Source: an uncultured Clostridia bacterium (GTDB lineage: Bacteria > Bacillota > Clostridia > Christensenellales > Borkfalkiaceae). From it: DNA of 50,778 bases. Under the pieces are notes generated by a model, which searched no databases, was not told the origin of the DNA, and was given only the letters and a program-made list of their open reading frames with translations. The position numbers and the translations under genes were made by a program. The DNA lies in NCBI GenBank assembly GCA_964459165.1, contig CAYWKM010000001.1, positions 1-50,778 on the forward strand. The letters are read 5' to 3'. Within the stretch, counting starts at the first letter, position 1. Each line of letters opens with the position of its first letter. Positions 19,152-33,348 of the stretch are shown one piece after another.

Positions 19152-20126
19152 TTAAAAATTTTCTTCCTTGATATCCGATTCGTCTACGAACTTCGACCGC
19201 ATCCCCTTATCTTTATTGTCGGCGATCTTATAGTAATTGACAAAATACTTCTTGCCCTCTATCGTGTAATAGTTGACGAATTGCAGACAAAGCAAGAATA
19301 AAAAAGAGGCGGGGACCGTGAGAAGAAGCGCGCTGAACACCGTACAAACGGCAAACACGATGTTGACCACCACGATTAAATAAAGGGCGATCAGATAATT
19401 GGAGAACATTCTCGCCCGGTAAGGAACTCTCGTTCGGAAGCAGCTTCCGAACGCTTTTACGACGGGCATATGACCTTCGATGATAGAAGGCATCCAATTG
19501 GAAATTATCGTCAATTTCAACGCCTCGCAGACAAAGACGCCCGTAACCGAAAAGAACAACGTCACAAGGAGCGGCGTCGCCGATAAAAGGGCGAAGAAAA
19601 TGAGATAACACAGAAAGAGAAGCAATCCGTCGTACACAAAAGACATGAGAACGTACAAAACAGCGTAGACGCTTGCCTCGCCGAGCGTTTTGACAAGACT
19701 GGCGAAGAAAGAGATATCCGCGTAGGAATTCATTTTATCGTCTAACATACTGCCGAAAGCGAAATTCCCCACCGTATCGAGAAAGCGAAACAAAATATAA
19801 GTAAACACGACGCCGATGACCGCGCCCACGATATGCGAAATTTTGGAAGAAACCAACACGACGAGCGCATGAAACGCGTCGGCGATGCTCGTCTGAAATC
19901 CCGCGAGATATTCCGTATTGCCGGAAACGAGCGCACGGAAAAATTCCCGAATCGTTTCGATACAGTTCTGTAATTCCGCGCTCCCGAAAATATAAGAGAG
20001 ACTCGGAATGACGAACGCGAGGGCGATACTTACCGTAACGATCATGACGACAAGCTTATATAAGAGCATTTTATAGATAATGCCGAAATTATCGATCAAT
20101 AAATGTAAACTGTTGCGAAAGCGCAT
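19152..20126 (-). CDS. Polytopic membrane protein of unknown function
   Basis: 324 aa with 6 or more hydrophobic helices and a charged C-terminal tail (KDKGMRSKFVDESDIKEENF). It starts 3 nt after the stop of the upstream membrane gene. Confidence 0.6.
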   Translation of the reverse strand: MRFRNSLHLLIDNFGIIYKMLLYKLVVMIVTVSIALAFVIPSLSYIFGSAELQNCIETIREFFRALVSGNTEYLAGFQTSIADAFHALVVLVSSKISHIVGAVIGVVFTYILFRFLDTVGNFAFGSMLDDKMNSYADISFFASLVKTLGEASVYAVLYVLMSFVYDGLLLFLCYLIFFALLSATPLLVTLFFSVTGVFVCEALKLTIISNWMPSIIEGHMPVVKAFGSCFRTRVPYRARMFSNYLIALYLIVVVNIVFAVCTVFSALLLTVPASFLFLLCLQFVNYYTIEGKKYFVNYYKIADNKDKGMRSKFVDESDIKEENF

Positions 20127-20128
20127 CT

Positions 20129-21001
20129 TTATCTATTTCCCCCTTTTTCAATCGGTTTATATTGATAAGGAGGATGCAAATCGGCTCTCTCCATCTGATC
20201 CTGTTCAAAGTACGCCACTTCCTGTCCGACGGTAAACATCGTAAACAAAATCGTATATACGAAAAAGACGACGACGTAAGCGAGCGCGCCGTTTTTAATC
20301 GCGAGGCTGCACAGCGTCGTAAAGCCTGCGACGACAAGCACGGTTCCCCCCGTAAAGACGGCATACGTGCCAATGAGCTCCTTTTTGATACCGGAGAGAA
20401 GCTGATACGCATATTTGAGCGATTCGTAAAAGCGGAATCCCGTTATCTGCAAACAAGGAAGCCATAAATAGAACATATGTACCGCATACAGGAGCGCAAA
20501 AACCATCACGGCGAATACGATGACGACGAAGATGTATTGAGCCGGCGCAATTCCGGAAAAAATTTGAATAAATCCGAAGAGAATCGCGCTCGTCAGAACC
20601 GCCCATATTTCGTACAGCGCGGTATACATGACGAGGATTCCGAGCGTCGAAGTAAAATTATCGTTGATTTTTCTCCATATGCCGTTTAACGTTCTCTTTC
20701 CTATTCTCATATGCTTTTCAATAAAGGCAAACTGCATCGAAAGAAGAATCGCAAGCAGGATGAGAATCGCGAAGGAGACGAGGGTATACGCCCAATGCGA
20801 AAAATTCATGACGGAGACGGAGCCGAAAATTTCCGCAAAAGTCGCATCTCCGATTTCTCCGGTAAAAAATTTTCTCAGAAATTCGCCGAAATCGGCATAA
20901 TCGAACATCACGGTCAGAAGAGCCCCGCCCACGAAAGCAAACGGCAATATCTGAATGCAATTTTTTCGCACATAATAAAACGTTTTCTTCAAAATCAGCA
21001 T
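20129..21001 (-). CDS. Polytopic membrane protein of unknown function
   Basis: 290 aa with 6 or more hydrophobic helices. It has no recognisable catalytic motif. Confidence 0.6.
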   Translation of the reverse strand: MLILKKTFYYVRKNCIQILPFAFVGGALLTVMFDYADFGEFLRKFFTGEIGDATFAEIFGSVSVMNFSHWAYTLVSFAILILLAILLSMQFAFIEKHMRIGKRTLNGIWRKINDNFTSTLGILVMYTALYEIWAVLTSAILFGFIQIFSGIAPAQYIFVVIVFAVMVFALLYAVHMFYLWLPCLQITGFRFYESLKYAYQLLSGIKKELIGTYAVFTGGTVLVVAGFTTLCSLAIKNGALAYVVVFFVYTILFTMFTVGQEVAYFEQDQMERADLHPPYQYKPIEKGGNR

Positions 21002-21092
21002 GACAATACCCCTGACGTTTTTCTCTTACTATTATATTACAAAATATCGATTCTGTAAAGGGTTTCGGAGAAAAAAATTTTTCATCCCGACG

Positions 21093-21171: not shown

Positions 21172-21693
21172 TTACAGGAAAGATTCCAGATAATATTTCA
21201 TGGTGGAATAATATTCCCCGAGATAATCTTCCGCAACCGAATCCCCTAAAAACGCCGCATATCTCTGAGCGGGATCTTCGATCTGCATATAGTATTCCTT
21301 TACGAGACGAAATCTGTCCGCGTACGACAGGGACTCGTCCGGATCCGACGGATTGTAGACGATCTCGCTCGTTTCCACGGAAGAATCCTCCTCCGTATCG
21401 CCGCCCGACGAATCGGAGGGATCCGTCGCGTTTACGACGGCGTCGAGCGTAACCGTTCTGAGGTCGCTCACCGCCCGATCGTATTCCTCCCCGAGCGCCA
21501 GATAAAGGAGCGAGAGCATATTCGATCGCGCCGTACCGTTCGCTATCAATTGAAGCTTGGCGTTCTCTCTGTCCGTATCCAATTGCTTTTGCAAAGCGTT
21601 CTTCTTTTCCTGCGCCGCGTACAGAATCTTCCGTTGCTCGTAATTCAACGTCGCGTACTGCTCCTCGGTGAAAGCAATGATATCAATATTCAT
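21172..21693 (-). CDS. Phage-module protein, helical and acidic (positional analogue of P22 gp26 plug)
   Basis: 173 aa, overlapping the upstream gene by 11 nt. It has a heptad-like N-terminal helix (YEQRKILYAAQEKKNALQKQLDTDRENAKLQL) and an acidic Ser/Asp linker. The function is inferred only from position. Confidence 0.5.
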   Translation of the reverse strand: MNIDIIAFTEEQYATLNYEQRKILYAAQEKKNALQKQLDTDRENAKLQLIANGTARSNMLSLLYLALGEEYDRAVSDLRTVTLDAVVNATDPSDSSGGDTEEDSSVETSEIVYNPSDPDESLSYADRFRLVKEYYMQIEDPAQRYAAFLGDSVAEDYLGEYYSTMKYYLESFL

Positions 21694-23035
21694 CGACCGT
21701 CGCCTCCAATCCGTATAAAGTCGCGTTGCTCCCGCATATCTTCACATTGAAAGTTCTTCCGCACAGCCGAGGGTGCAAGAGAACGCTCCCCTCCGCGTTC
21801 GCCCCGAACGAACGAGATTCATCCGAAACGACGACGCTGTATTTTCCCTCCGCGCGGATAAAGAGATCCTTCAAGATCTTCCGCTTTCCGCCCAAAAAGA
21901 AATCCGTCGGGCCGCTCTCCCACAGGCAATCGTACGCGTCGCCCTCTTCTCTTTCCCTTACGTAATATAAATCGGCCCCCTCGAAAAAATACAGCTTATC
22001 CGAAAAGGAGAAAAAGCTATCCCCGTGAAAGGGAAGCAGATATCCCTCTTTCTCGCTCGCGTCGATGCAGAGCGACGCCTTCGTTTCGTCCTTCAAGACG
22101 ACTCCCGCATAATATTTCTCCCCGTGCGCGCAGGGAATCCCGAAGTCTCCCTTTTTCAATAGGGCGAAAAGCTCGCCGCACATCCTTTCGGCTTTCGTTC
22201 CGTCAAAGCGGTAAATCCCCTCGTCCGTCAGAAATACGACGTATCCCCCGCATACGGCGACGCTCTCCTTTACGATGTTTCCGCAGGAGACGTCGAGGGC
22301 GGAGACGTAAAAGTTTCTATTATCCCCCATGGCGCGCAATCGGGTGATTCCCCTCTCGCGAATCAGATACAGCCTGCCGTCGTAACCGATCAGCCGAAGG
22401 ATCTTTCCCTTGTCCTCGGGGATCTCGATATATCCCGCCCCCTGTACGTTCTCGGTAAAATCATTGACGTCGAGCGCTCTCGAAAAGGTTATTTTACAGT
22501 CGGACTCCTCGTTTGATAGAAACAACCGCTCGTAATGCACCGCCGCGCACGAGGAAGAGGGAACGGAGGCGAGCTGCGCGAACGCGTTTTCGCTCCCGCT
22601 GAAAAGATACGCTCCCTCCTTCCCCGCGAAGAGGAAACGCTCCTCTCGATCCGTCGTCATATAAAACATTCCCTCGGGCGGAGAGGAAAACGCGATCCCC
22701 GAGGCAGTCGCGCTTCCGTCCGTTTCCAAGCGGTAAAGCTTCCCGTCCGCCCCGTACGCGAAGAGAATTTCCTCGTGCGAATCGCCGCTGCGATAGCGGT
22801 AAACGTACGCCCGCTTCATTTCAACGGGGAAGGAGACTTCCGCGCCGTCCGCCGTCGCCCGCTCCGCCGCAGGTCCGCTCGTCAGCGAGCCGCCTTCGCC
22901 TTGAAAGCCGACGCAGGTTCGGGCGAACAATTTTTCTCCCGCGTCCTCTCCGCGATAGGAATATATCCCGTCGAAATATTTCTTTTTCGTCGAGAAGGAA
23001 GACTGCCCTTCGATCGTTTTTTCCAAAAATATCAT
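21683..23035 (-). CDS. Phage-module structural protein with repeated beta-strand blades (positional and size analogue of P22 gp10)
   Basis: Start set at ATG 23035 (MIFLEKTIEG...), which forms an ATGA overlap with the upstream stop. The longer ORF from 23263 would overlap the upstream gene by 230 nt. Recurrent motifs are GKLYRLETDGS, GAYLFSGS, GRLYLIRERG and EGIYRFDGT. 450 aa. Confidence 0.6.
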   Translation of the reverse strand: MIFLEKTIEGQSSFSTKKKYFDGIYSYRGEDAGEKLFARTCVGFQGEGGSLTSGPAAERATADGAEVSFPVEMKRAYVYRYRSGDSHEEILFAYGADGKLYRLETDGSATASGIAFSSPPEGMFYMTTDREERFLFAGKEGAYLFSGSENAFAQLASVPSSSCAAVHYERLFLSNEESDCKITFSRALDVNDFTENVQGAGYIEIPEDKGKILRLIGYDGRLYLIRERGITRLRAMGDNRNFYVSALDVSCGNIVKESVAVCGGYVVFLTDEGIYRFDGTKAERMCGELFALLKKGDFGIPCAHGEKYYAGVVLKDETKASLCIDASEKEGYLLPFHGDSFFSFSDKLYFFEGADLYYVREREEGDAYDCLWESGPTDFFLGGKRKILKDLFIRAEGKYSVVVSDESRSFGANAEGSVLLHPRLCGRTFNVKICGSNATLYGLEATVDEY

Positions 23036-23589
23036 ACCCAACTCCTGCAAGAAATCCTTCCCGCTCTCTCCCTCGCGACCAAGGCGGCGTGCAATTCCTC
23101 GTAAAAAGTTCTGTTCCAGACCGCGCTCTCGTTCAACAGATCCCGCGTGAGAAAATAATGTTTCAGGATTCCCGCGACCAAAGCGATCTCCGAAACCCCT
23201 CGATCGACCTCGCAGAAATCGTCCGCCGCCTTTTCCCTCGGACGGGAGGCGTATTCGATGCAAACCCGCCCCTTTTCCGTTTGAAGGTAAGAGGCAAAGC
23301 TGCGGTAGCCGAGCCTCTTCCCCTTGTCGTCCGTCAGCTTCTTCACGTAGGCGAAGGGGTACGCGAAGGAATCATAGCGGATCTTCCCCGTCTGCGTCTC
23401 GCAGATTTTTCGGTGCAGGAGGGGAAAATATTCCCCCGCGATTTCCGTTTCGACCTCGTTGTAATAGACGAGCAGCTCCTCCGCCTCCCCGTTGAGAGAC
23501 GCGTCCTCCTTGATCCCGCTCAAATGCTCAAACAGATCTCTCCTCCCCAAGTGCACCGCCGCCTTAGCTAAAATTTCTTTTACTATCAT
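23032..23589 (-). CDS. Phage-module protein (positional analogue of a head-tail adaptor, P22 gp4-like)
   Basis: 185 aa from ATG 23589, which has an AGGAG Shine-Dalgarno 6 nt upstream. The TTG at 23595 is less likely. It is the first gene after the capsid gene. Confidence 0.5.
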   Translation of the reverse strand: MIVKEILAKAAVHLGRRDLFEHLSGIKEDASLNGEAEELLVYYNEVETEIAGEYFPLLHRKICETQTGKIRYDSFAYPFAYVKKLTDDKGKRLGYRSFASYLQTEKGRVCIEYASRPREKAADDFCEVDRGVSEIALVAGILKHYFLTRDLLNESAVWNRTFYEELHAALVARERAGRISCRSWV

Positions 23590-23669
23590 GAACAACTCCT
23601 ATGTTAAAAACAGGGCGGTCGCGCCTTCAACCGTTTCAAGGCAAGCGGCGCGCCCTATCGCTTGTCGGT

Positions 23670-24836
23670 TTACGCTTCGGTAATGCCGGTGAGCATCGCC
23701 TGACCGCAGGGTCTGACGCAAAGGAGATTCGCATACTTGGCGAGCGTCGCTTCAAACAGGGGCTTTCCTGCGACCTGCTTCAAGATTTTTCCGTCCTCCC
23801 CTCTGAGCCAATCCCATTCGCCGAGCTGATGCAGGCAGAAATCGTCTGTGTTTAACAGATACATCGTCCCCTTGGGACAGAACCTGTCGGTCACGACGGG
23901 AATGCCGTTGAAGCTCATGGCGAGATATCCGCCCGCGAGCTCCATTACGTCGATATTTCTCTTGTATTGGGAAAGCACGTCGGCGAGCGCCCTCTTTACG
24001 CCCCACGAACACATGATGAAATTAACCTTGGAGCCGGAAACCTCGTCGAGATAATCGATGACCTTCTGAATGGTATTCTCGCTGATCGACCCGACGGAAG
24101 AGAGCTTATACGGCTGCATACAGCTGCTGACGCTTCTTTCCACGCCGTAGAGCTTTTCGCTGTCCGAAAAGAGGGCGGCGAGTCCCGTAATTTCCAAACC
24201 GTAGGAATTTTGCACCGTAACGAAGCTGTCCGCGGGAAGGTCCGTAGCGGTAACGGTATCGCCGCTCACTTGGATATATTTTCCCGTTCTGTCGACGTAG
24301 GTAATCGTCCTGCCGGTATCGATCACCGTACCCGTTTCCGAATAAAAATCGAGTTTCATCCCCTCGAAGCAGGCCAAAACGGTATCGAGGTAAATTTTAC
24401 CGGCGGCCACCCCGGCTACCGTGCCGACCTTGCCGGAACCGTCGCCGAACGTCATTCTGGCGAGATTGAACGACGCGCTTTTGACCAAAGACTCCATTTC
24501 CTCGTTCAAGAGATTGACGAACGCCCCCTCGTCGTTCCGCGAAGCCTTGATCGCCTTATCGGAAATACAAATGGTTCCGAATAAATTTTTCAATTCGCCG
24601 GTGAAGCAAAGGTACTTGCTTCCGCCGTACGCGGGAAGATTTCCGTCCTCCGTTCCCGCCCCGACGCCTCCGTTGACGCCGTATCTGACGACCTTTTTCA
24701 CGTCCTTTCCGTACACGTCGGCGGTCGACTGTTTGATCGCGGCGAGAAAAGGATTCGCCTTCATATTCAGCTGATCCGTCACCGCGTCGAGATAAAAGGA
24801 TTTCAATGCGTTGTCCGCTGTTTCCAAAGTAATCAT
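23670..24836 (-). CDS. Phage major capsid protein (HK97-fold type)
   Basis: 388 aa from ATG 24836, with an AAGGAG Shine-Dalgarno. It follows the scaffold gene. Capsid-like C-terminal segment SFNGIPVVTDRFCPKGTMYLLNTDDFCLHQLGEWDWL. It is the only gene in the module flanked by intergenic gaps, with a hairpin downstream. Confidence 0.7.
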   Translation of the reverse strand: MITLETADNALKSFYLDAVTDQLNMKANPFLAAIKQSTADVYGKDVKKVVRYGVNGGVGAGTEDGNLPAYGGSKYLCFTGELKNLFGTICISDKAIKASRNDEGAFVNLLNEEMESLVKSASFNLARMTFGDGSGKVGTVAGVAAGKIYLDTVLACFEGMKLDFYSETGTVIDTGRTITYVDRTGKYIQVSGDTVTATDLPADSFVTVQNSYGLEITGLAALFSDSEKLYGVERSVSSCMQPYKLSSVGSISENTIQKVIDYLDEVSGSKVNFIMCSWGVKRALADVLSQYKRNIDVMELAGGYLAMSFNGIPVVTDRFCPKGTMYLLNTDDFCLHQLGEWDWLRGEDGKILKQVAGKPLFEATLAKYANLLCVRPCGQAMLTGITEA

Positions 24837-24959
24837 ATCGTTATTTTCTCCTTGCATTCTGATTTTTTTGTTCGGGGAACAGGCAAAGCCCTTCTTTTGA
24901 AGCGGTTCAAAAACGCAGCTCTTTTCCGCCCCGCAGAAAGAATCGGGCTGTTTGCCCCT

Positions 24960-25541: not shown

Positions 25542-27368
25542 TTATTGCTCCTTTTTTTCTTTATGTTCGCGAAGGTGCTTTAAAAATCTCTCCTTCGCCT
25601 CTCCGCTCTCGTATTTCTTAAATTCGTCCGAGAGCAAGAACCTCGTGTGTTCTCTGATATGAATTTCATGATCGTCGTATTCGTCCGCTTCCACATCCTT
25701 TTTAAGGAGGGAAACGTTTTCGTCATGCGCCTTGTCCTCATGCAAAGCAGATAAATCTTTGCTCCATTCAAAGGAGGAAAATCCCAACGCGTTCAATACT
25801 CTGTTCTTATTTCCGTCCGGAATTTTTCCGTCCTCGCCGGTTAAGAGTCCCAGCTCGATCAACTGCATCATTTCCGTCCTCACGTTCGCGGGCGAAGTCT
25901 TATCGTCCGTCTCCAAGACGACGTCGTCGGCGCAGATATCGCTGGCGGAAAAATAAAACAACTTCGCCTTTTTTCCGTTCCCCGTCATGCGCACGATCCT
26001 GCGCGAACCGGCAAACTGCCTGTAAAGCCTCAAAATATGACTGCCGATGCTCTTTAACGCGTTGTCGATATTCCCTTCCGTCGAAGACAGGCGCTCGTTG
26101 TACTGTTCCAACAGAATTTTCAATCCCGTCGCGCTCGTCACGTTGGTGGGATTCGTCGAATTTCTCGATATTTCGCTCGTCTCTCCGATCAGAAGAAACT
26201 CCTCTTCCAGCCGTTTTTCCTCCTCGGCGAGCTCCGGGGGAACGCTCCCCGCGCTCATTACCTGAGGAGGAACGCTCCCCTGTCGGTATACGAGAATCTT
26301 TCCGGGAGGAAGTCCCTCTTGTTCGAGCTCGTCCATATCCACCGAACCGTCCTCCACCGTCACGACTCCCATGGAAAGCCTGTTCAGAAATTCATGCTTT
26401 CTGTTCCGCACGGCGTTATACGCCCTCTGCAAGGGAATGAGCCTCTCCACGATGCTCGCCCCGTAAAACGCGCCCGGCATATCGACGCATTTCTGCATGA
26501 CGAAGGGAAAATCCCTTCCGCCGAACTTGGCGTTTCGATAAGGAAGGACGCCGGTATAGAGCAGCTTCCCGCCTGCGGCGATCTCCACTTTCCCTTCGGG
26601 AAACTCCTTCGTCGGTCTCGTATACCGTTCGACGACGACCTCGTAATCGTGCAGCGTCGTACTGTTTCCGCCCGACGCCGTCTGCTCGAGCTCGGACGAA
26701 GCGGAATAGGGCGCGAGCGAAAACTCCGCGATGTCCCTGCCCGCCACCCATACGCCGTACATCTCGTGAATTTTTCCGCACGGCATGGCCTTCGCGTGAA
26801 TGAGCGAATGAACGCTTTCGAGACTTTCCGCCGCCAAATTATCGGGATAGACCTCGTAGGGGGAAAGCGGAATAATCTCCACGTTTCCTTCGTAAATCTT
26901 CCCTTCCTCCGACGATCCGATCTCCATTCCGAGATCGCCGTTCCATATAACCTTGTAAAACGCCGTGCCGCACACCTCCGACCACATCGTTGCGCGGGTG
27001 ACGGCTTCGTCCAGCTTGCAGTCTTCCTTAACCGTGTCGATGATCCCTTTGGCGAGAGAGGCGGCGTATAAATCCCCCTCCTCGTCGGAAGCGGGACGCG
27101 CATAAATTTGCGGCCTCATCTTGATGAGCTTCGCGATTCTCGTATCGACGACGGGAGCGATGTGATTGAAAACTCTTCGACTCTGCCAGTAAAACTGCTT
27201 GTCCTCCGTATAAATATCTCCGTCCGGACCGATATCGCAGTATTGCATGCCGTTTATAAAATTCATATTCAATTGCCAACCGCGTTCAATCGAAAGTCTC
27301 TGCAGCTTTCTGTTCTCGTAATCCTCTAAAATATCTTGCGCAAGTCCTTTCTCTTCCTTCTCATCCAT
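25542..27368 (-). CDS. Phage portal protein
   Basis: 608 aa, positioned directly after the terminase genes, with a helical basic/acidic C-terminus. The size and position fit a podovirus-type portal. Confidence 0.7.
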   Translation of the reverse strand: MDEKEEKGLAQDILEDYENRKLQRLSIERGWQLNMNFINGMQYCDIGPDGDIYTEDKQFYWQSRRVFNHIAPVVDTRIAKLIKMRPQIYARPASDEEGDLYAASLAKGIIDTVKEDCKLDEAVTRATMWSEVCGTAFYKVIWNGDLGMEIGSSEEGKIYEGNVEIIPLSPYEVYPDNLAAESLESVHSLIHAKAMPCGKIHEMYGVWVAGRDIAEFSLAPYSASSELEQTASGGNSTTLHDYEVVVERYTRPTKEFPEGKVEIAAGGKLLYTGVLPYRNAKFGGRDFPFVMQKCVDMPGAFYGASIVERLIPLQRAYNAVRNRKHEFLNRLSMGVVTVEDGSVDMDELEQEGLPPGKILVYRQGSVPPQVMSAGSVPPELAEEEKRLEEEFLLIGETSEISRNSTNPTNVTSATGLKILLEQYNERLSSTEGNIDNALKSIGSHILRLYRQFAGSRRIVRMTGNGKKAKLFYFSASDICADDVVLETDDKTSPANVRTEMMQLIELGLLTGEDGKIPDGNKNRVLNALGFSSFEWSKDLSALHEDKAHDENVSLLKKDVEADEYDDHEIHIREHTRFLLSDEFKKYESGEAKERFLKHLREHKEKKEQ

Positions 27369-27624
27369 TGTTTTCCGCCTCCTTCAAAAGATTCTCCAAC
27401 ATCTCTCTTTCTCTTTCCAATTCCTCCTCGCTCTTGCCCGATAGATCCTCGTTCTCCAAAAGGAACATGATCGCTTTCATATCGGGGGGAATCTCTTTCT
27501 TCGTCCTTCGCTTTTTTACGACGTGAAATTCTCCGTCCTCCACGGCAAAATCCTCCGTCACCTCCGAAACGCTGTATCCCGAAGCGAGTTTTTTAATAGC
27601 CTTGGTTATCTTTGGATCTGTCAT
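27361..27624 (-). CDS. Small terminase-like mini-protein (TerS-like), located downstream of TerL
   Basis: 87 aa. LASGYSVSEV and KKEIPPDMKAIMFLLEN resemble the aGYS... and PPDxxAxiFwLkN segments I recall from small terminase subunits. It overlaps the TerL 3' end by 32 nt and the portal start by 8 nt. Confidence 0.4.
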   Translation of the reverse strand: MTDPKITKAIKKLASGYSVSEVTEDFAVEDGEFHVVKKRRTKKEIPPDMKAIMFLLENEDLSGKSEEELEREREMLENLLKEAENNG

Positions 27625-29038
27625 TTTTCAGTTTCCTCATCCTCCTTTCCTTGTCCCTCTGCACCTCCGTCTTTTCCACGATCTGTTTGGGAGGCTGAGG
27701 TCTCGACATGATATAGTATCTCAGCTCGTCCATGGAATGGTCGTCCCTCTTCACGGGCGTATCGTTGCTCCCCCAGAAATATCCCTTCATCTCGCGGATC
27801 ATGTTCACGCAACAGCTGAAAATATATAAATTGGGGAAAGAATTGTTTCTGTTTAAATAGCTCTTTACCCTCGAAATCCCCGAGAAAACGTCCTTGTCGA
27901 CGTGGGTATTGACGAGAATCCCCCTTTCATAAAAGAGCTCCGATACGCTCTTGGCGTACGCCAACGTCTTTTGATTCGCCGCGCTGTCGATGAGCGCTTC
28001 TATCCTCCCCTTCGCGTCCGTATGCCATCCGATTTTCTTGCAGATCTCTTTGATCTTCGCCGAGTGATAATCGACGTCCTTTCCCGATTCGTAATGCTCG
28101 TAAACCACGTATACGTTTCCGTCGTAATCTACGGCGTACCAATGCGCGGAAAGGGGGTTGTTCAGTCCGGGATCGATCGAAATGTTGTCCTGCCATTCAA
28201 ACGGTACGGAAAAAGGCTCTATCACGTGTACGCTCTCGTCAAAGGAGGGATAGACCAATCCCGCGTTAGAGGCGAATCGCCCGTATCTCCTGCTTTGCAG
28301 CTCGCTTTCGTCCATACTGCTTTCAAGCAGCTGAATTTCCTTTTTGTCGAGATAGGGATTATCCGACCATTCCATAAATTCATACCAGACCTCGGGATTG
28401 TTCTTTCGGTTCATGTAGATTTCGTCGTACACGTACGTAAGTCCCTTCAAAGGAGTCATCGTCGCAAACAGATCCCCCTTGCGATCGATCACCCTCATGC
28501 GACATTCCTCATAAACGTCCTTAGGAGGCTCCTCGTCGAACCAAACGTAGTCGAGCGAGCTTCCCTGAAATTTTTCTCTCCCCTGATCGCAGCTTTTAAA
28601 ACCGATCACCGAAATTCCCCCGAACACGTTTTTCACGCGGATAAAATCGATGATCCCGTTTTCCGGACTTCCCTTTCTCCCGCTTATCATCACGATCTCG
28701 TCTATCCAATCCTTCCTGAGATAATAAAGAATCTTTTTTTGCGCGACGTCTCTCTGTACCTGTTGCGATAAGGACACTACCCATCCCTCCGTATTTCTTC
28801 TGTTTTTTCGGTAAGGATGAATTCCCCTCGCAAAATAAACGCATTCGACCGCGCCGCACTCCGTCTTGCCCGAACGATTTCCCCCGAAGACGAAACGAAT
28901 CCTCTTTTTGCTTTTATGGAAGGCGATCTGCTTCCTGTGCCTCTTCTTTCCGGTATTGTATTGAGCGAGCTTGTCCGATTTTTTTCTCCTCTCTATCTCC
29001 TTTTCAATCTCGGCCAATCTTTCTTTGATATTATTCAT
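27593..29038 (-). CDS. terL: Phage terminase large subunit
   Basis: Walker A FGGNRSGKTE, Walker B LDYVWFDEEP and the C-terminal nuclease motif RDDHSMDELRYYI. 481 aa. Confidence 0.85.
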   Translation of the reverse strand: MNNIKERLAEIEKEIERRKKSDKLAQYNTGKKRHRKQIAFHKSKKRIRFVFGGNRSGKTECGAVECVYFARGIHPYRKNRRNTEGWVVSLSQQVQRDVAQKKILYYLRKDWIDEIVMISGRKGSPENGIIDFIRVKNVFGGISVIGFKSCDQGREKFQGSSLDYVWFDEEPPKDVYEECRMRVIDRKGDLFATMTPLKGLTYVYDEIYMNRKNNPEVWYEFMEWSDNPYLDKKEIQLLESSMDESELQSRRYGRFASNAGLVYPSFDESVHVIEPFSVPFEWQDNISIDPGLNNPLSAHWYAVDYDGNVYVVYEHYESGKDVDYHSAKIKEICKKIGWHTDAKGRIEALIDSAANQKTLAYAKSVSELFYERGILVNTHVDKDVFSGISRVKSYLNRNNSFPNLYIFSCCVNMIREMKGYFWGSNDTPVKRDDHSMDELRYYIMSRPQPPKQIVEKTEVQRDKERRMRKLKNDRSKDNQGY

Positions 29039-29055
29039 ATTTCGTCAATAATACT

Positions 29056-29085
29056 TTCACAACCTCCTTTTTTGAAATCTATAAT
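29056..29085 (+). promoter_or_regulatory. Promoter of gene 29092-29835 with leaderless-type spacing
   Basis: TTCACA (29056-29061), 18 nt, TATAAT (29080-29085), then 6 nt, then ATG 29092. No Shine-Dalgarno is present. Confidence 0.5.
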
Positions 29086-29091
29086 AAAGCC

Positions 29092-29835
29092 ATGAAAATA
29101 AAACGTTTCCTTCTTCCGTTGACAGCTCTGCTCGTCATGATTTTTCTGTTCCCTTCAAAAGCTAAAAATGCGAACGCGGAAACCGGCGTCTATGCGTGCA
29201 TCGTCAACGGCGACACCTATTTATACGAGACGCAGAGCGAAGAAAACGGCATATTTATTCTGCCGCAATCCTATTATGTGAAGGTTCTGAGCAAAGGAAG
29301 CTCCTTCTGTTACGTGCAATATCTTGAAAACGTCGCCGAATTTAAAAGCGTCTTCGGCTACTGCAAGACGGACGAGCTCCTCTTTGTCGATTATACGCCC
29401 CTGCGCCCCTATCTTTACCTCACGTTCGACGTCAAATATTACATCGACGGCTCTTCGGATCTGTTTTCGACGGAAAACATTCTCTCCTCCTTCTCCTATC
29501 AGTGCGTTTATTACGGCGATTATATCGTCGGATCCGCCCGATATTCCTATGTATTGGTCAACGGAGCCTACGGCTACATTCCTCAGGCGCAACCCGTTTC
29601 CTATGAAATGAATACGGATTATCTCTCCTACATCGTGTCGTTAGACCCGCCCGAAGAGGACGAGGACCTCTCGGAAGACGCGAAAAATACGGAAGATTTG
29701 ACCGACGGGCAAGAAGAAAGCGACAATCGGGGAATTATCGTCGTCTGCGTCGCCGGACTCGTCGTCATAGCCGCGACTGCTCTGGTCGTCATTTTGAAAT
29801 CCGGCAGGAAGAAACAATATTATTACGACGACTGA
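29092..29835 (+). CDS. Secreted, C-terminally membrane-anchored protein with two SH3b-like halves
   Basis: Signal peptide MKIKRFLLPLTALLVMIFLFPSKAKNANA. SH3-like segments YACIVNGDTYLYETQSE...YYVKVL and YSYVLVNGAYGYIP. An acidic linker, a TM helix IIVVCVAGLVVIAATALVVIL and the tail KSGRKKQYYYDD follow. Confidence 0.65.
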   Translation: MKIKRFLLPLTALLVMIFLFPSKAKNANAETGVYACIVNGDTYLYETQSEENGIFILPQSYYVKVLSKGSSFCYVQYLENVAEFKSVFGYCKTDELLFVDYTPLRPYLYLTFDVKYYIDGSSDLFSTENILSSFSYQCVYYGDYIVGSARYSYVLVNGAYGYIPQAQPVSYEMNTDYLSYIVSLDPPEEDEDLSEDAKNTEDLTDGQEESDNRGIIVVCVAGLVVIAATALVVILKSGRKKQYYYDD

Positions 29836-30352
29836 CGAACGCATCCTCCTTCGGGATAAACCGAAAGCTGCAGCCCTTTCCTCGAAGAAAGCATTCGTCC
29901 TTTCCCTCCGTCACGTTGCAATAGACGCGCATGACGATATCGCTCGAAGAAAACTCCGTCAGAAAGACCTTCTCGTCGTAACCCGCCGCATGAAGCCGCA
30001 CGGAAATTTTTTTGGTGACGCTCCGTATTTTCCGAAAAAAGCTGCTGTATGAAAAGGGAAATTCGTAATTTTCATATTTTCCGTAAAGCAGCCGCTTCCT
30101 TCGGAAATATTTATATTCGATCAGACATTTTTCGTCCTCCGAAAGCCCCGCGAGAATCCCTTCCATCGTCTGTCGAAGCTTTTCAAGCGCGCCGACGAGA
30201 AACGTATCGTCGATGATTTCGTCAATATATTGCAGCGTTCGGGAATCGGCGGACGAGCTTTTGATCATCGCGTCCGCAAGACGGTAATACATCTTCTTCA
30301 AATATCCGATTTTCGGATACAGGTATAAAACCGTCTTCTCGTATTCAAACAT
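29789..30352 (-). CDS. Small sigma-70 region-4-like transcription factor (ArpU/Xpf-type late activator candidate)
   Basis: Start at ATG 30352, with an AGGAGG Shine-Dalgarno 7 nt upstream. LSEDEKCLIEYKYFRRK...FSYSSFFRKIRSVTKKISVRL resembles region 4.1/4.2. The 3' end overlaps the convergent gene 29092-29835 by 47 nt. Confidence 0.45.
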   Translation of the reverse strand: MFEYEKTVLYLYPKIGYLKKMYYRLADAMIKSSSADSRTLQYIDEIIDDTFLVGALEKLRQTMEGILAGLSEDEKCLIEYKYFRRKRLLYGKYENYEFPFSYSSFFRKIRSVTKKISVRLHAAGYDEKVFLTEFSSSDIVMRVYCNVTEGKDECFLRGKGCSFRFIPKEDAFVSRRNNIVSSCRISK

Positions 30353-30382
30353 CTCCACACCTCCTTTATTCGAGATAAAATC

Positions 30383-30396
30383 CGAACATTTGTTCG
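30383..30396. promoter_or_regulatory. LexA (DinR) SOS box / Cheo box
   Basis: CGAACATTTGTTCG is a perfect CGAAC-N4-GTTCG palindrome. It lies 14 nt downstream of a minus-strand TATAAT (30415-30410) and 31 nt upstream of ATG 30352. Confidence 0.6.
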
Positions 30397-30594
30397 TGCT
30401 TACAAATATATTATAGCTTGATATTTGGAAATTTGCACGGGTATTTGTCAAAAATTTTGATTTGTTTTTTATTTTTTTTGATTTTAAGGGAAAATCGGAG
30501 AAGTCTTACGAGCTTTCGCGAAAAATCGTTCACGGATTCAACGCCGCGCTCCTTAGAGCGTTTGAAACATCCGCTGAAAGCGAAATAAAAAATC

Positions 30595-30623
30595 TTGTAA
30601 TTTATTCAGGAGTATGTTATAAT
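30595..30623 (+). promoter_or_regulatory. Strong sigma-A promoter of the large surface protein gene
   Basis: TTGTAA (30595-30600), 17 nt, TGT-TATAAT (TATAAT = 30618-30623). The -10 overlaps the first ATG (30622). ATG 30631 lies 7 nt downstream. Confidence 0.6.
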
Positions 30624-30630
30624 GTTTTAT

Positions 30631-33159
30631 ATGAAAAGAATAAAATCGATTACGCCAATCTTTTTATCGATCCTCGCCGTAGCCGCAGGGTTTTTCGCCT
30701 TGCGCTTTTCCGACGAAGGACAGACGGGATCCGCCGCGTCTTATACGGAAGTGACCGCCTCCTCTTCCTTTTTGTCGATTCCCGACGGGTACGAGCAATA
30801 CCTCGATCTTCAAAATCCGACCTCCGTCGCTCACAGCGAGGCTTACTTTGCTATATCGGACGCCAATATCGTCTATCTCTACGATCAGGAAAAAGGCGTA
30901 TATACCGCCTACGAACACACGTATAATACCGATTCGCGCATGAACGAGATCTCGCAGATCAGCTTCGCCTCCGACGGAAATCTTTATTTCACCGATTCGT
31001 CCTCCTATCTTTTCCGTCTCGATTGCTCTACGCTCCTATCGACGCGCACCGCTATTTCCTGCAACGTCTTTGCCGTCGACGGAGACGTCGTCTACTATTC
31101 CACGATTGCAAGAGGAAAAACCTATATTTCCTCCGTTCCGATTTCCTCGCCCGACCCCGAACAGGCGAAAAGCTGCGCCTCCTATCCGGGATCGACGTTA
31201 CCGGCGATCGTCGTCGACGACGGAACGCTTCTCTATGTGAATATGTTCTATCTTACGAACGTTCTTCTCGACGAAACGATCGCTCTTTCCATCGACGAAA
31301 CCGTCGTTTCCGCGGCGTCCGACGACGGCGTTCTCTATCTCTGCGGAGCCGAAGGCTCCTTCGTCGTATACGATTACTATAACTCGAAGGTTCTTCGGCA
31401 ATACGAAGGCGAATATTATTACGCGGAAAATTACGAAGACTACGTCTACGTCGTCGACAGCCGTTCCGTCTCCCGTTTCGATAAGCGGACCAATGAATTT
31501 ACCTCCTATCGGATATGCTCTTCCTCTTCGGCGGAGAACAGACTTTCCAACGCAGTCGACGCCGTTGTATGCGGCAATGCGCTCTATATCGCCGACGCCG
31601 ACAATAGCCGCGTTCTCCTATACGACACAGAAAAAAATTCTTATCAAACAATCGCAACGGCCGCCACTCCTTTGGAGCTCTCGGCGGATGACTCCACCGT
31701 CCTCGTCAACAGCGGAAACGAGTGCGCCGTCTACAACTTAAAGGGAGAGCTTCTGTTCAGCTATTCCGATCTCTCGGGCGGAGAGCTCTTTCTCTCCTCC
31801 GTCAACGTGTACGGAACGTACTACGTCGTCACCTCCAACAATTATTTTTGCAAAATTTACCGGGACGAAAACGGGGAATATAAGGCGGAAAAAGCGTCGA
31901 AAACCCTACGATCCGTCGCGCAGGAAGTTTCTTCCGATCTTTACGGGAATATTTACGTTTATTTTTCAGACAATACCGTTTACCGCTTCACCGAGAATAA
32001 CTTTACGCGAACAAACGAAGCCGGCGCCTATTGTTATCTGTTTCCTTCGAACGTCTCTCACTTTTGCGCGGATTACGCAGGCAACGTATACGGCATGAGC
32101 GGAAACAATCTTTTTTCCAGCTCCGGAGATTATACCGCGTTGAATTGTTCGGACAGCGTATACGCCTCCGAAAGCGCGCCGATTAAGACCGTCGTCGGCT
32201 TTTCCTCCAACCGCGTTTATATTCTCTATCGCAATTACGTTCTCTATACCGATATTCTTTCTATTCCCGCTCTCAACAATATTCCCTCGCAGAATGTTTC
32301 TTCCGGAATTTTCGGCAGCGCCGATACGACGCTCCAAGTATTGAACGTAAAAGCCGGATCCATTCTCATCGCCTTCGATTTGGATTCCTTAAAGGGCTCG
32401 ACCGTATTTCCCTATCTGAATTACGATCGGACGACGGAGGACAAGCAGTGCGTCAAGCTCGGAGAAACGGACAATTATTACGTCGTGTCCGTATTCGATA
32501 ACGACACGAAAAAATATACGGCGAGCATCGTTTTGAAATCCTCTTGCGAATCCGTCGATTCCTCCTATCTTTTCACCGAGGCGACGGGATTTGAAAACGG
32601 ACAAGGCTATGCCTCGAACGACGTCGCATTATTCCGTTACCCCTTCTTATCCGAATCGCTCTCAATCGTTACGATAGAGAAGGGAAGCGCCGTCAATGTC
32701 TTTGGAACGGTTACCCTTAACGAGGGGGCTGATTATCGCTATTATTACGTCGGCGTGGAGACGAAAGACGCAAGCTATATGGGCTACGTTCCCGTTTCGT
32801 ATATTTTGCCCATACAGATCTCCTCCGCCGATAAAACCATTCTTTCTTACGGCTATATTTCGACAACCGATCCGACCTTCCTTATGACGGCGGAAGACGG
32901 AAGCACGATAGAAGTATCGACTTCCGAAAAATTCAGCATATACGACGACCCCTATTCCTCCCCGACGGTGACGATCGGATATACCGACGAAAACGGAAAA
33001 GTGTACTATACGACCGTTTCGTCCTCCCTTTTAACGGCGACCGATACCGGGCAGCTGAGGACCTTTATCATCATCGTCATTATCGTCGTCGCGCTGATTA
33101 TTTTAACGGATTACTTCATTCTCCGCAAACGCCGAAACGAAGACGACGATTACGATTAA
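30631..33159 (+). CDS. Large secreted, C-terminally anchored protein with beta-propeller-like repeats and SH3-like C-terminal domains
   Basis: The ORF opens at 30622, but the promoter geometry favours ATG 30631 (MKRIKSITPIFLSILAVAAGFFAL, a signal peptide). Many blade-like repeats are present (LYFTDSSSYLFRLD, ALYIADADNSRVLLYD, NIYVYFSDNTVYRF and others). The SH3-like region reads VALFRYPF...AVNVFG...YMGYVPVSYIL. A TM helix and the tail RKRRNEDDDYD follow. Confidence 0.7.
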   Translation: MKRIKSITPIFLSILAVAAGFFALRFSDEGQTGSAASYTEVTASSSFLSIPDGYEQYLDLQNPTSVAHSEAYFAISDANIVYLYDQEKGVYTAYEHTYNTDSRMNEISQISFASDGNLYFTDSSSYLFRLDCSTLLSTRTAISCNVFAVDGDVVYYSTIARGKTYISSVPISSPDPEQAKSCASYPGSTLPAIVVDDGTLLYVNMFYLTNVLLDETIALSIDETVVSAASDDGVLYLCGAEGSFVVYDYYNSKVLRQYEGEYYYAENYEDYVYVVDSRSVSRFDKRTNEFTSYRICSSSSAENRLSNAVDAVVCGNALYIADADNSRVLLYDTEKNSYQTIATAATPLELSADDSTVLVNSGNECAVYNLKGELLFSYSDLSGGELFLSSVNVYGTYYVVTSNNYFCKIYRDENGEYKAEKASKTLRSVAQEVSSDLYGNIYVYFSDNTVYRFTENNFTRTNEAGAYCYLFPSNVSHFCADYAGNVYGMSGNNLFSSSGDYTALNCSDSVYASESAPIKTVVGFSSNRVYILYRNYVLYTDILSIPALNNIPSQNVSSGIFGSADTTLQVLNVKAGSILIAFDLDSLKGSTVFPYLNYDRTTEDKQCVKLGETDNYYVVSVFDNDTKKYTASIVLKSSCESVDSSYLFTEATGFENGQGYASNDVALFRYPFLSESLSIVTIEKGSAVNVFGTVTLNEGADYRYYYVGVETKDASYMGYVPVSYILPIQISSADKTILSYGYISTTDPTFLMTAEDGSTIEVSTSEKFSIYDDPYSSPTVTIGYTDENGKVYYTTVSSSLLTATDTGQLRTFIIIVIIVVALIILTDYFILRKRRNEDDDYD

Positions 33160-33167
33160 AAGCAGCA

Positions 33168-33205
33168 AAGCGCAGGCTTTCACGCCTGCGCTTCCGTTTT
33201 GCTCT
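33168..33205 (+). terminator. Rho-independent terminator
   Basis: 10-bp stem AAGCGCAGGC (33168-33177) / GCCTGCGCTT (33184-33193), then CCGTTTTGCTCTTTT. Confidence 0.75.
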
Positions 33206-33289
33206 TTTCTCTGTGAATAGAAAATCTCTTAAAAGCTGCCGCTCGCGCAGCTTCGCCCTCCCCTAACGGGTCGGTAAAATTCAATCGAC

Positions 33290-33332
33290 AGAAACAAAAA
33301 TACCGCTGCGAATCGACGAGGACCCGCAACGG
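33290..33332 (-). terminator. Terminator of the GH43 gene
   Basis: The minus-strand RNA pairs CCGUUGCG with CGCAGCGG (33325-33332 / 33303-33310, including one G-U pair) and is followed by UAUUUUUGUUU. Confidence 0.5.
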
Positions 33333-33348
33333 CTTTTTTTATTTTTTA

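Follow-up and report, generated by a model that had tools for sequence, protein, structure and literature searches.

A conserved LexA-type box on the promoter of a late-activator-like gene beside a gene transfer agent–like capsid cassette in Christensenellales

In a 50.8-kb window of DNA from an uncultured Clostridia bacterium of the Christensenellales (contig CAYWKM010000001.1; the window is the whole stretch analysed), a compact block of phage-derived capsid genes adjoins a small gene for a putative transcriptional regulator, the promoter of which contains a perfect CGAAC-N4-GTTCG palindrome. Downstream of the regulator and on the same strand are genes for the large terminase (TerL), a small-terminase-like (TerS-like) protein, a portal protein, a protein in the scaffold position and the major capsid protein. 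A conserved gene of 247 codons on the opposite strand lies between the regulator and TerL, and a divergent gene of 845 codons lies beyond the regulator promoter. The most interesting result of the comparison described here is that this conserved and selected cassette, which resembles a gene transfer agent (GTA), carries a candidate LexA operator kept in every species examined.

The palindrome and the promoter it occupies

The palindrome, CGAACATTTGTTCG at positions 30383-30396, is situated 13 nucleotides (nt) past a minus-strand TATAAT (30415-30410) and 30 nt ahead of the regulator start codon (ATG 30352). Read along the minus strand, TTGACA (30451-30446) is followed after 30 nt by the TATAAT, then by the box as CGAACAAATGTTCG and, 17 nt further on, by the Shine-Dalgarno sequence AGGAGG (30365-30360), which precedes the ATG by 7 nt. 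Direct reading thereby confirms the setting given in the original prediction, which had placed the box between a promoter and AGGAGG. The TTGACA was considered as a -35 hexamer and rejected, being 30 nt away from the -10, a distance that is itself conserved.

The perfect palindrome occurs once in the whole window. An earlier estimate of 0.05 copies by chance, made with equal base frequencies, was somewhat optimistic, as dinucleotide-preserving shuffles give an expectation of 0.18 per window and at least one copy in 15 of 100 shuffles. Taken alone, a single box in 50.8 kb is therefore weak evidence, not significant and only suggestive. Core matches in the window number three against 1.14 expected, and at least three are present in 8 of 100 shuffles. 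Other GAAC-N4-GTTC and one-mismatch matches are all intragenic and about as frequent as in the shuffles, and a weight-matrix scan of the window revealed no site beyond the box, so that the earlier claim that there is no second box is borne out by motif, mismatch and weight-matrix scans alike.

The stronger evidence comes from related genomes. While a word-indexed homologue search for the regulator returned a single cluster only, at 90% identity, an exhaustive HMMER search yielded a regulator family of 173 representatives. From a scan of one genome per species, the best 80 of 114 loci were retained (L006-L085); together with the window and contig L001 of a relative sharing 90% protein identity, these provide 82 non-redundant promoters. 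Without exception, species loci named beyond "uncultured Clostridia/Firmicutes" belong to Borkfalkia, Gallimonas or Christensenella/Christensenellaceae, Borkfalkia being classified in Christensenellales and Gallimonas in Clostridia incertae sedis.

All 82 orthologous regulator promoters carry C-[A/G]AAC-A[A/T]A[T/C]-GTT[C/T]-G (C-RAAC-AWAY-GTTY-G) just past the -10. Across the 912,746 nt of these loci, the relaxed motif is found 81 times at the regulator-promoter position and 7 times elsewhere, and a 20-nt weight matrix built from the regulator sites, which themselves score 16 bits or more, detects only two other strong matches. The motif is fixed even where identity of the regulator protein is down to 25-35%. 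In the 90% relative (contigs L001-L005), gene order is as in the window, synonymous divergence (dS) is 0.3-0.44 and the box reads CGAACAAATGTTCA; over the 50 nt that begin at TTGACA and run slightly beyond the -10, 49 positions are identical, compared with only 22-35 of 50 just upstream of the promoter core. It is this conservation, not the count of a single copy, that indicates a non-random box. Moreover, every one of the 82 loci has a -10 at a distance of 2-22 nt ahead of the box, with a TGn extension in 61, and since exactly 8 nt separate it from GAAC in 36 of the 82, the box can be placed at roughly +1 to +14, the classical position of a repressor.

An inverted repeat in a leader might also act as RNA. 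In this alternative, the palindrome would be a hairpin (attenuator or terminator) followed by a T-run, and a terminator scan does list a 5-bp stem, a 4-nt loop and a GATTTTAT tail. However, the fold is no better than those of shuffled sequences (z -1.56), no Rfam family matches and the predicted transcription start lies inside the palindrome in most species. The outermost stem positions additionally vary independently (A.C 26, G.T 21, A.T 19, G.C 16), so pairing is not maintained. Given the lack of covariation this reading is rejected and retains only a negligible probability.

Comparison with known operators points to LexA. The symmetrised consensus of the regulator sites, ATACGAACATATGTTCGTAT, contains, flanks included, the 18-nt footprint TACGAACATATGTTCGTA that phylogenetic footprinting gave for Firmicutes lexA promoters; the Gram-positive consensus is CGAACRNRYGTTYC (PMC2248561). 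Clostridial LexA boxes are described as GAAC-N4-GTT[C/T] (PMC4234289). The spacer fits RNRY on either strand in 80 of the 82 sites (AAAT 42, ATAT 22, AAAC 12, GTTT 3, ATAC 1).

The motif is also found at a DNA-repair operon. The two strong sites away from the regulator promoter (L018:698-709 and L021:722-733) each lie approximately 55 nt upstream of a gene matching TIGR03916 and approximately 5 kb from the regulator. TIGR03916 denotes a putative DNA modification/repair radical SAM protein; the full-length gene scores above the curated cut-off and forms an operon with a following TIGR03915 gene (putative DNA repair protein). A metagenome scan with the TIGR03916 protein returned 38 loci, of which 37 could be scored (L086-L122). 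In 28 of these 37, the motif reaches at least 12 bits at 5-90 nt from the TIGR03916 start codon, doubled in five cases, and there is one strong match elsewhere in the 238,785 nt of these loci. In several phyla, LexA is documented to control a two-gene repair operon linked to uracil-DNA glycosylase (PMC8565304). Going by the family names, the genes found here presumably represent the same system. The TIGR03916/TIGR03915 operon is likely a member of the SOS regulon in this lineage, and since the motif precedes both the repair operon and the regulator, it appears to mark a small regulon joining the two, as expected for LexA. Neither the window nor the related loci contain recA, lexA or uvrAB, RecA and LexA genes having been looked for with the E. 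coli proteins as queries.

The features of a LexA operator thus occur together in a perfect 14-mer, an extended consensus with an RNRY spacer, a promoter-proximal position and the presence of the motif at repair genes. The palindrome at 30383-30396 is very probably a LexA operator that represses the regulator; that LexA is the protein bound there we infer from knowledge of the family. The original proposal of a LexA operator just past the -10 gains support from the consensus, from conservation in 82 of 82 promoters, from position and from the repair-operon motif.

Some observations weigh on the other side. In the window, 13 nt separate the -10 from the box where 7-8 are usual, and a good -35 is missing from the promoter. 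The assignment to LexA draws on motif identity and one repair operon. Furthermore, both half-sites are weakened (AAAC...GTTT) in 19 of the 82 species, a degeneracy that would suit the operator of some other protein, for example of the regulator itself in autoregulation. This is quite improbable, because autoregulation would leave unexplained both the fixity of the motif and the sites at the repair operon, which proved to be remote from the regulator and capsid genes in all DNA searched for these. A motif that stays fixed while the regulator falls to 25% identity points instead to a highly conserved host protein, and the consensus holds the published Firmicutes LexA footprint together with its flanks.

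The regulator promoter contains further conserved sequence. Approximately 25-50 nt upstream of the box, most species have the element TTGGCATAnnGGCAnCCGTnTGTCAA, a TTGACA/TGTCAA inverted repeat, which in the Borkfalkia-type group is the perfect palindrome AACAGGCATACGTATGCCTGTT; the form in the window, at 30431-30451, is shortened. This element, the equivalent of an inverted repeat in most species, may be a second operator and the site of a second regulator. In Borkfalkia-type loci (L009, L018, L021, L024-L026 and similar), the leader from box to start codon is approximately 95-260 nt long, compared with 30 nt in the window, and a conserved TGGCAG-N6-CTG stretch directly follows the box. A sigma-54 reading of the conserved TGGCA-containing elements was rejected by hand, the GG-to-GC spacing being wrong.

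The regulator and its relation to the capsid operon

The regulator reading frame (29789-30352) and the peptide segments singled out in the original prediction are as described there. The likeness that had been proposed to sigma region 4, ArpU and RinA is consistent across the family but is seen only below curated thresholds. Among 92 family members, 36 match RinA model TIGR01636 in this subthreshold range (best E 1.1e-5), 12 match sigma70-ECF models (ECF, extracytoplasmic function) and 5 match ArpU, while PHROG matches comprise 31 to family 36 (transcriptional regulator), 28 to family 248 (transcriptional activator) and 5 to family 351 (RNA polymerase sigma factor). A profile comparison with hhalign against RinA of phage 80alpha covers 66 columns over the helix-turn-helix (HTH; E 2e-4, probability 47%) and aligns EKCLIEYKYFRRK...FSYSSFFRKIRSVTKKISVRL of the window regulator with ERefIQEYYFNKK...ISDRTAHRIKRKIISRL of RinA. 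An AlphaFold (AF2) model built with the family alignment has a predicted local distance difference test (pLDDT) score of 90.6 and consists of an N-terminal helical hairpin followed by short helices; the model made without an alignment (pLDDT 40) was unusable. The best Foldseek neighbours of the former in BFVD are phage proteins of 125-160 amino acids annotated as ECF sigma factor, sigma-70 region 4 or transcriptional activator (template modelling score at most 0.63, E at least 0.23).

A late-activator identity has several results to contend with. The window regulator scores 16.3 bits against TIGR01636, for which the cut-off is 31.9 (E 0.0083), and stays below every curated threshold (TIGR01636, TIGR01637, Pfam Sigma70_r4). 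Foldseek against PDB with the well-scoring model returns generic helical bundles only (E at least 0.48). In addition, the family has no Pfam match above noise, PDB sequence and profile searches came back empty, and no relatives were found in IMG/VR or among GenBank phages. On these comparisons, the regulator cannot be shown to belong to any curated family; it appears to form an unnamed new family, seen only in bacterial chromosomes among the collections searched. Its resemblance to late activators of the RinA/Ltr type, which are sigma-region-4 proteins, is at the level of "works like" and is weak but consistent.

Position ties the regulator to the capsid operon, as it is co-oriented with and upstream of TerL in every locus with DNA reaching TerL. 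Across species, the sequence ahead of TerL retains a -10-like TATTTT 7-9 nt before the ATG and a purine-rich element of the G(G/T)GAAAG type, with neither a -35 nor a Shine-Dalgarno sequence conserved. This pattern suits an activator-dependent and possibly leaderless promoter, though it is not proof of one. The original prediction had found no sigma-A promoter for the TerL operon, a statement that holds only in part, as a weak site, TTCAAA-17-TATTAT, does exist. As a search pattern, the TerL promoter motif (GTGAAAG...TATTTT) proved too unspecific, with 18 matches at TerL and 43 elsewhere. Conserved position and analogy with phage late activators tip the balance modestly towards the regulator activating the TerL-to-capsid operon.

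Activation by the regulator also has to accommodate the opposite-strand gene that separates it from TerL, the -10-like element that TerL possesses in its own right and the lack of a clear Ltr-type triple direct repeat in the window. An unlikely alternative is that LexA controls the promoter while the regulator does not itself activate the capsid operon. Transcription would then read through antisense to the 247-codon gene into TerL, or the regulator would act elsewhere, for instance on an unlinked tail/lysis locus or on the membrane-protein genes to either side. The stretch from the regulator stop codon to TerL holds no convincing terminator, related cassettes exist without this regulator, and the -10-like element of TerL would also fit. 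The tail-to-tail overlap of the regulator and the 247-codon gene by 47 nt (29789-29835), kept in every species, suggests transcriptional interplay; convergent transcription from the latter could damp regulator expression. Read-through would nevertheless be opposed by approximately 750 nt of head-on transcription from the near-consensus promoter of the 247-codon gene (TTCACA-18-TATAAT, 6 nt before its ATG), and the conserved TerL promoter without a -35 resembles activator-dependent late promoters. Moreover, Ltr-type regulators typically lie just upstream of terminase genes and activate these (PMC3753634).

For each of the TerL, 247-codon and 845-codon genes, a -10 hexamer lies 6-9 nt ahead of the likely ATG and a Shine-Dalgarno sequence is lacking (29039-29094 and 30595-30633), which suggests leaderless mRNAs for all three. 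The regulator differs in having a leader that contains AGGAGG.

A phage-derived cassette in the chromosome

Features of the locus are collected in Table 1. The cassette is placed between a phosphoglucomutase gene and a gene of the GH43 type, in the chromosome of a spore-forming member of the Clostridia. Its flanks consist of housekeeping genes (spo0A, phosphoglucomutase, rpoD, dnaG); the window also encodes aromatic amino acid biosynthesis and alanine racemase genes, and dnaG and rpoD belong to a dGTPase-dnaG-rpoD operon. It holds no tRNA genes, and its annotation includes no integrase, replication, tail or lysis genes at the cassette.

Table 1. Coordinates of the regulator promoter, the regulator and the neighbouring capsid cassette in the window
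Feature	Position	Strand	Remarks
Putative LexA (Cheo/SOS) box, CGAACAAATGTTCG	30383..30396	read on minus strand	present in 82/82 orthologous promoters; consensus ATACGAACATATGTTCGTAT
-10 hexamer TATAAT of regulator promoter	30410..30415	-	13 nt before box
Conserved element upstream of -10, TTGACAAATACCCGTGCAAAT	30431..30451	-	30 nt from -10
Shine-Dalgarno sequence AGGAGG	30360..30365	-	7 nt before ATG 30352
Regulator, 187 aa, sigma-region-4-like HTH, distantly RinA/Ltr-like	29789..30352	-	dN/dS 0.13
Conserved membrane-anchored protein between regulator and TerL, 247 aa	29092..29835	+	found in 83/86 sequences compared
TerL promoter-like site, TTCAAA-17-TATTAT	29048..29076	-	weak sigma-A-like, 9/12; ends 9 nt before ATG; no Shine-Dalgarno sequence
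Large terminase (TerL)	27593..29038	-	Pfam Terminase_6N, E 1.2e-13; phrog_2; dN/dS 0.04
TerS-like protein, 87 aa	27361..27624	-	phrog_309, E 1.9e-5, profile positions 196-261 of 319; dN/dS 0.03
P22-type portal protein	25542..27368	-	~50% identical across species
Protein in scaffold position, 192 aa	24960..25538	-	no family match; placed by position
Major capsid protein	23670..24857	-	phrog_14242, E 2.3e-60
Three further cassette genes	21172..23595	-	187 aa; virion structural protein of ~450 aa (probable start 23035); 173 aa
Divergent conserved membrane-anchored protein, 845 aa	30622..33159	+	likely true start ATG 30631; dN/dS 0.17
aa, amino acids; dN/dS, ratio of nonsynonymous to synonymous divergence.

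The cassette is syntenic in at least 80 species genomes. Wherever a contig is long enough, the order is the divergent 845-codon gene, the regulator, the opposite-strand 247-codon gene, TerL, the TerS-like gene, the portal gene, the gene in the scaffold position and the capsid gene. Identity across species is 68-79% for TerL, approximately 50% for the portal protein and approximately 55% for the capsid protein, whereas the nearest GenBank phages have capsid proteins only 25-30% identical. Between the window and the 90% relative, with dS at 0.3-0.44, dN/dS is 0.04 for TerL, 0.03 for the TerS-like gene, 0.13 for the regulator and 0.17 for the 845-codon gene. These values and the shared synteny indicate that the cassette is under purifying selection across many species of Christensenellales.

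The capsid genes might alternatively be an ordinary decaying prophage remnant in which the box is a leftover or a chance occurrence. A perfect box arises in 15% of shuffles of 50.8 kb, and the locus has no integrase, tail or lysis genes nearby. Comparative data contradict this reading, however: the box is present in 82 of 82 promoters against 7 relaxed background matches in 913 kb, and a remnant in decay would hardly combine dN/dS values of 0.03-0.17 with a TerL at the identity given above and a gene order kept across 80 species. It is accordingly rejected as extremely improbable. The cassette instead combines head and packaging genes, unaccompanied by genes for replication, integration or lysogeny, with lineage-wide conservation under purifying selection. 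On this evidence, the capsid module is best described as a chromosomally fixed, phage-derived cassette resembling a GTA, not a prophage.

The TerS-like gene lies downstream of TerL, which it overlaps, and its product matches only the C-terminal third of the TerS profile. The protein may therefore lack a DNA-binding domain, as TerS proteins of GTAs do. The probable start codon of the 845-codon gene, ATG 30631, is 7 nt past an extended -10.

Distant cassettes are present in IMG/VR contigs (L126-L132). Their TerL proteins are 63-73% identical, and the TerS-like, portal, scaffold-position and capsid genes are all there. These contigs have neither the regulator, nor the 247-codon gene, nor the box, their upstream genes differ, and the TIGR03916/TIGR03915 repair operon was not found in them. 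The capsid operon can therefore run under other control, which counts against the proposed activation by the regulator. The two upstream open reading frames in one contig (L128) were read by eye as a Rho-type ATPase and a DNA methyltransferase.

Beyond the cassette, two genes for polytopic membrane proteins (290 and 324 amino acids, without family matches) follow at 19152-21001 behind a strong promoter-like site, TTTACA-17-TATAAT (21031-21059), and are conserved in the 90% relative. That relative has a five-gene insertion between the GH43-type and 845-codon genes (L001 3056-6703, corresponding to 33160-33348 of the window), with domains of the thiamine-biosynthesis type (Pfam HK, TMP-TENI, HAD, Phos_pyr_kin and TENA_THI-4). 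The flanks of the cassette thus vary while the cassette itself stays intact.

A proposed SOS switch among known systems

Sequence comparison indicates an operator that is conserved, conforms to the LexA consensus and lies at a promoter, beside a cassette conserved under selection. In the undamaged cell, LexA would occupy the box over the first transcribed bases and block the regulator promoter. Upon DNA damage, RecA-stimulated self-cleavage of LexA would free the promoter and allow the regulator to be made. The regulator would then activate the adjoining, co-oriented operon of TerL, TerS-like, portal, scaffold and capsid genes. This scheme as a whole, with a LexA operator on the promoter of a regulator that activates a GTA-like capsid operon, is considered reasonably probable. 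A further step is tentative and falls somewhat short of probable: that the locus is the master switch of a GTA-like element, through which DNA damage in these gut commensals triggers small podovirus-type capsids that package host DNA, and is the genetic basis of the GTA-like packaging of Christensenellaceae DNA.

The arrangement recalls the Ltr superfamily of phages (RinA, ArpU, LtrA/Sigma70_r4, LtrB and LtrC), in which a small sigma-region-4-like HTH protein is likewise encoded upstream of and co-oriented with terminase and head genes. Phage ltr genes immediately precede terS, have an essential part in late transcription and are controlled by CI (PMC3753634), and Ltr-type late activators are required for transcription of the packaging operon after SOS induction (PMC3152322, PMC3753634). 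Compared with Ltr proteins, the regulator is longer, at 187 amino acids, with a helical hairpin at its N terminus; it scores below the cut-offs of the curated RinA, ArpU and Sigma70_r4 models, and no member of its family occurs in the viral collections searched. Also unlike the CI-controlled phage genes, the regulator has the putative LexA box directly on its promoter, and it is separated from TerL by an opposite-strand gene.

A comparable two-step logic, from LexA through a small sigma-type factor to an effector, is found on plasmid pIP404 of Clostridium perfringens, where a LexA site and SOS induction control UviA, which drives the effector gene BCN5 (PMC4459074). UviA, however, belongs to the TcdR family of sigma factors, comprises regions 2 and 4 and acts on a plasmid-borne bacteriocin gene; the target proposed here is a chromosomal capsid operon.

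In gene content, podovirus type and the absence of tail and lysis genes from the locus, the cassette resembles, by description, FpGTA I of Faecalibacterium. FpGTA I is a chromosomal operon of approximately 10.5 kb and ten open reading frames, of podovirus type and near-universal in its genus, that encodes a TerS without a DNA-binding domain, TerL, portal, scaffold, capsid and hypothetical proteins, with tail and lysis genes elsewhere (PMC12946183). GTA-like packaging of Christensenellaceae DNA has been seen in faecal virus-like particles, for which neither locus nor regulator was named (PMC12946183). In contrast to the present locus, no regulator or LexA box is described for FpGTA I, and the flanking membrane-protein genes are specific to the Christensenellales cassette.

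Domesticated phage-like particles with production tied to the SOS response include PBSX of Bacillus subtilis and RcGTA of Rhodobacter capsulatus. PBSX has a sigma-like factor, Xpf, for its late genes, an Xre repressor switch and a myovirus-type tail. Control of RcGTA lies with CtrA and GafA, and production depends on LexA indirectly. Neither particle is known to have a RinA-like activator gene that carries a LexA box of its own.

That GTA-like packaging is common in Gram-positive anaerobes of the gut is a recent finding, and for Christensenellaceae no locus or regulator had been named. The present analysis supplies a candidate locus, a conserved control point with the hallmarks of a LexA operator and a new late-activator-like regulator family. 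It suggests a domesticated phage module that has been rewired, with the phage CI layer gone and the host SOS repressor placed directly on the late activator gene. With a LexA operator in this position, mitomycin C or fluoroquinolones should induce the cassette. If the scheme is true, capsid-mediated gene transfer in this widespread lineage of gut bacteria should increase under DNA-damaging antibiotics.

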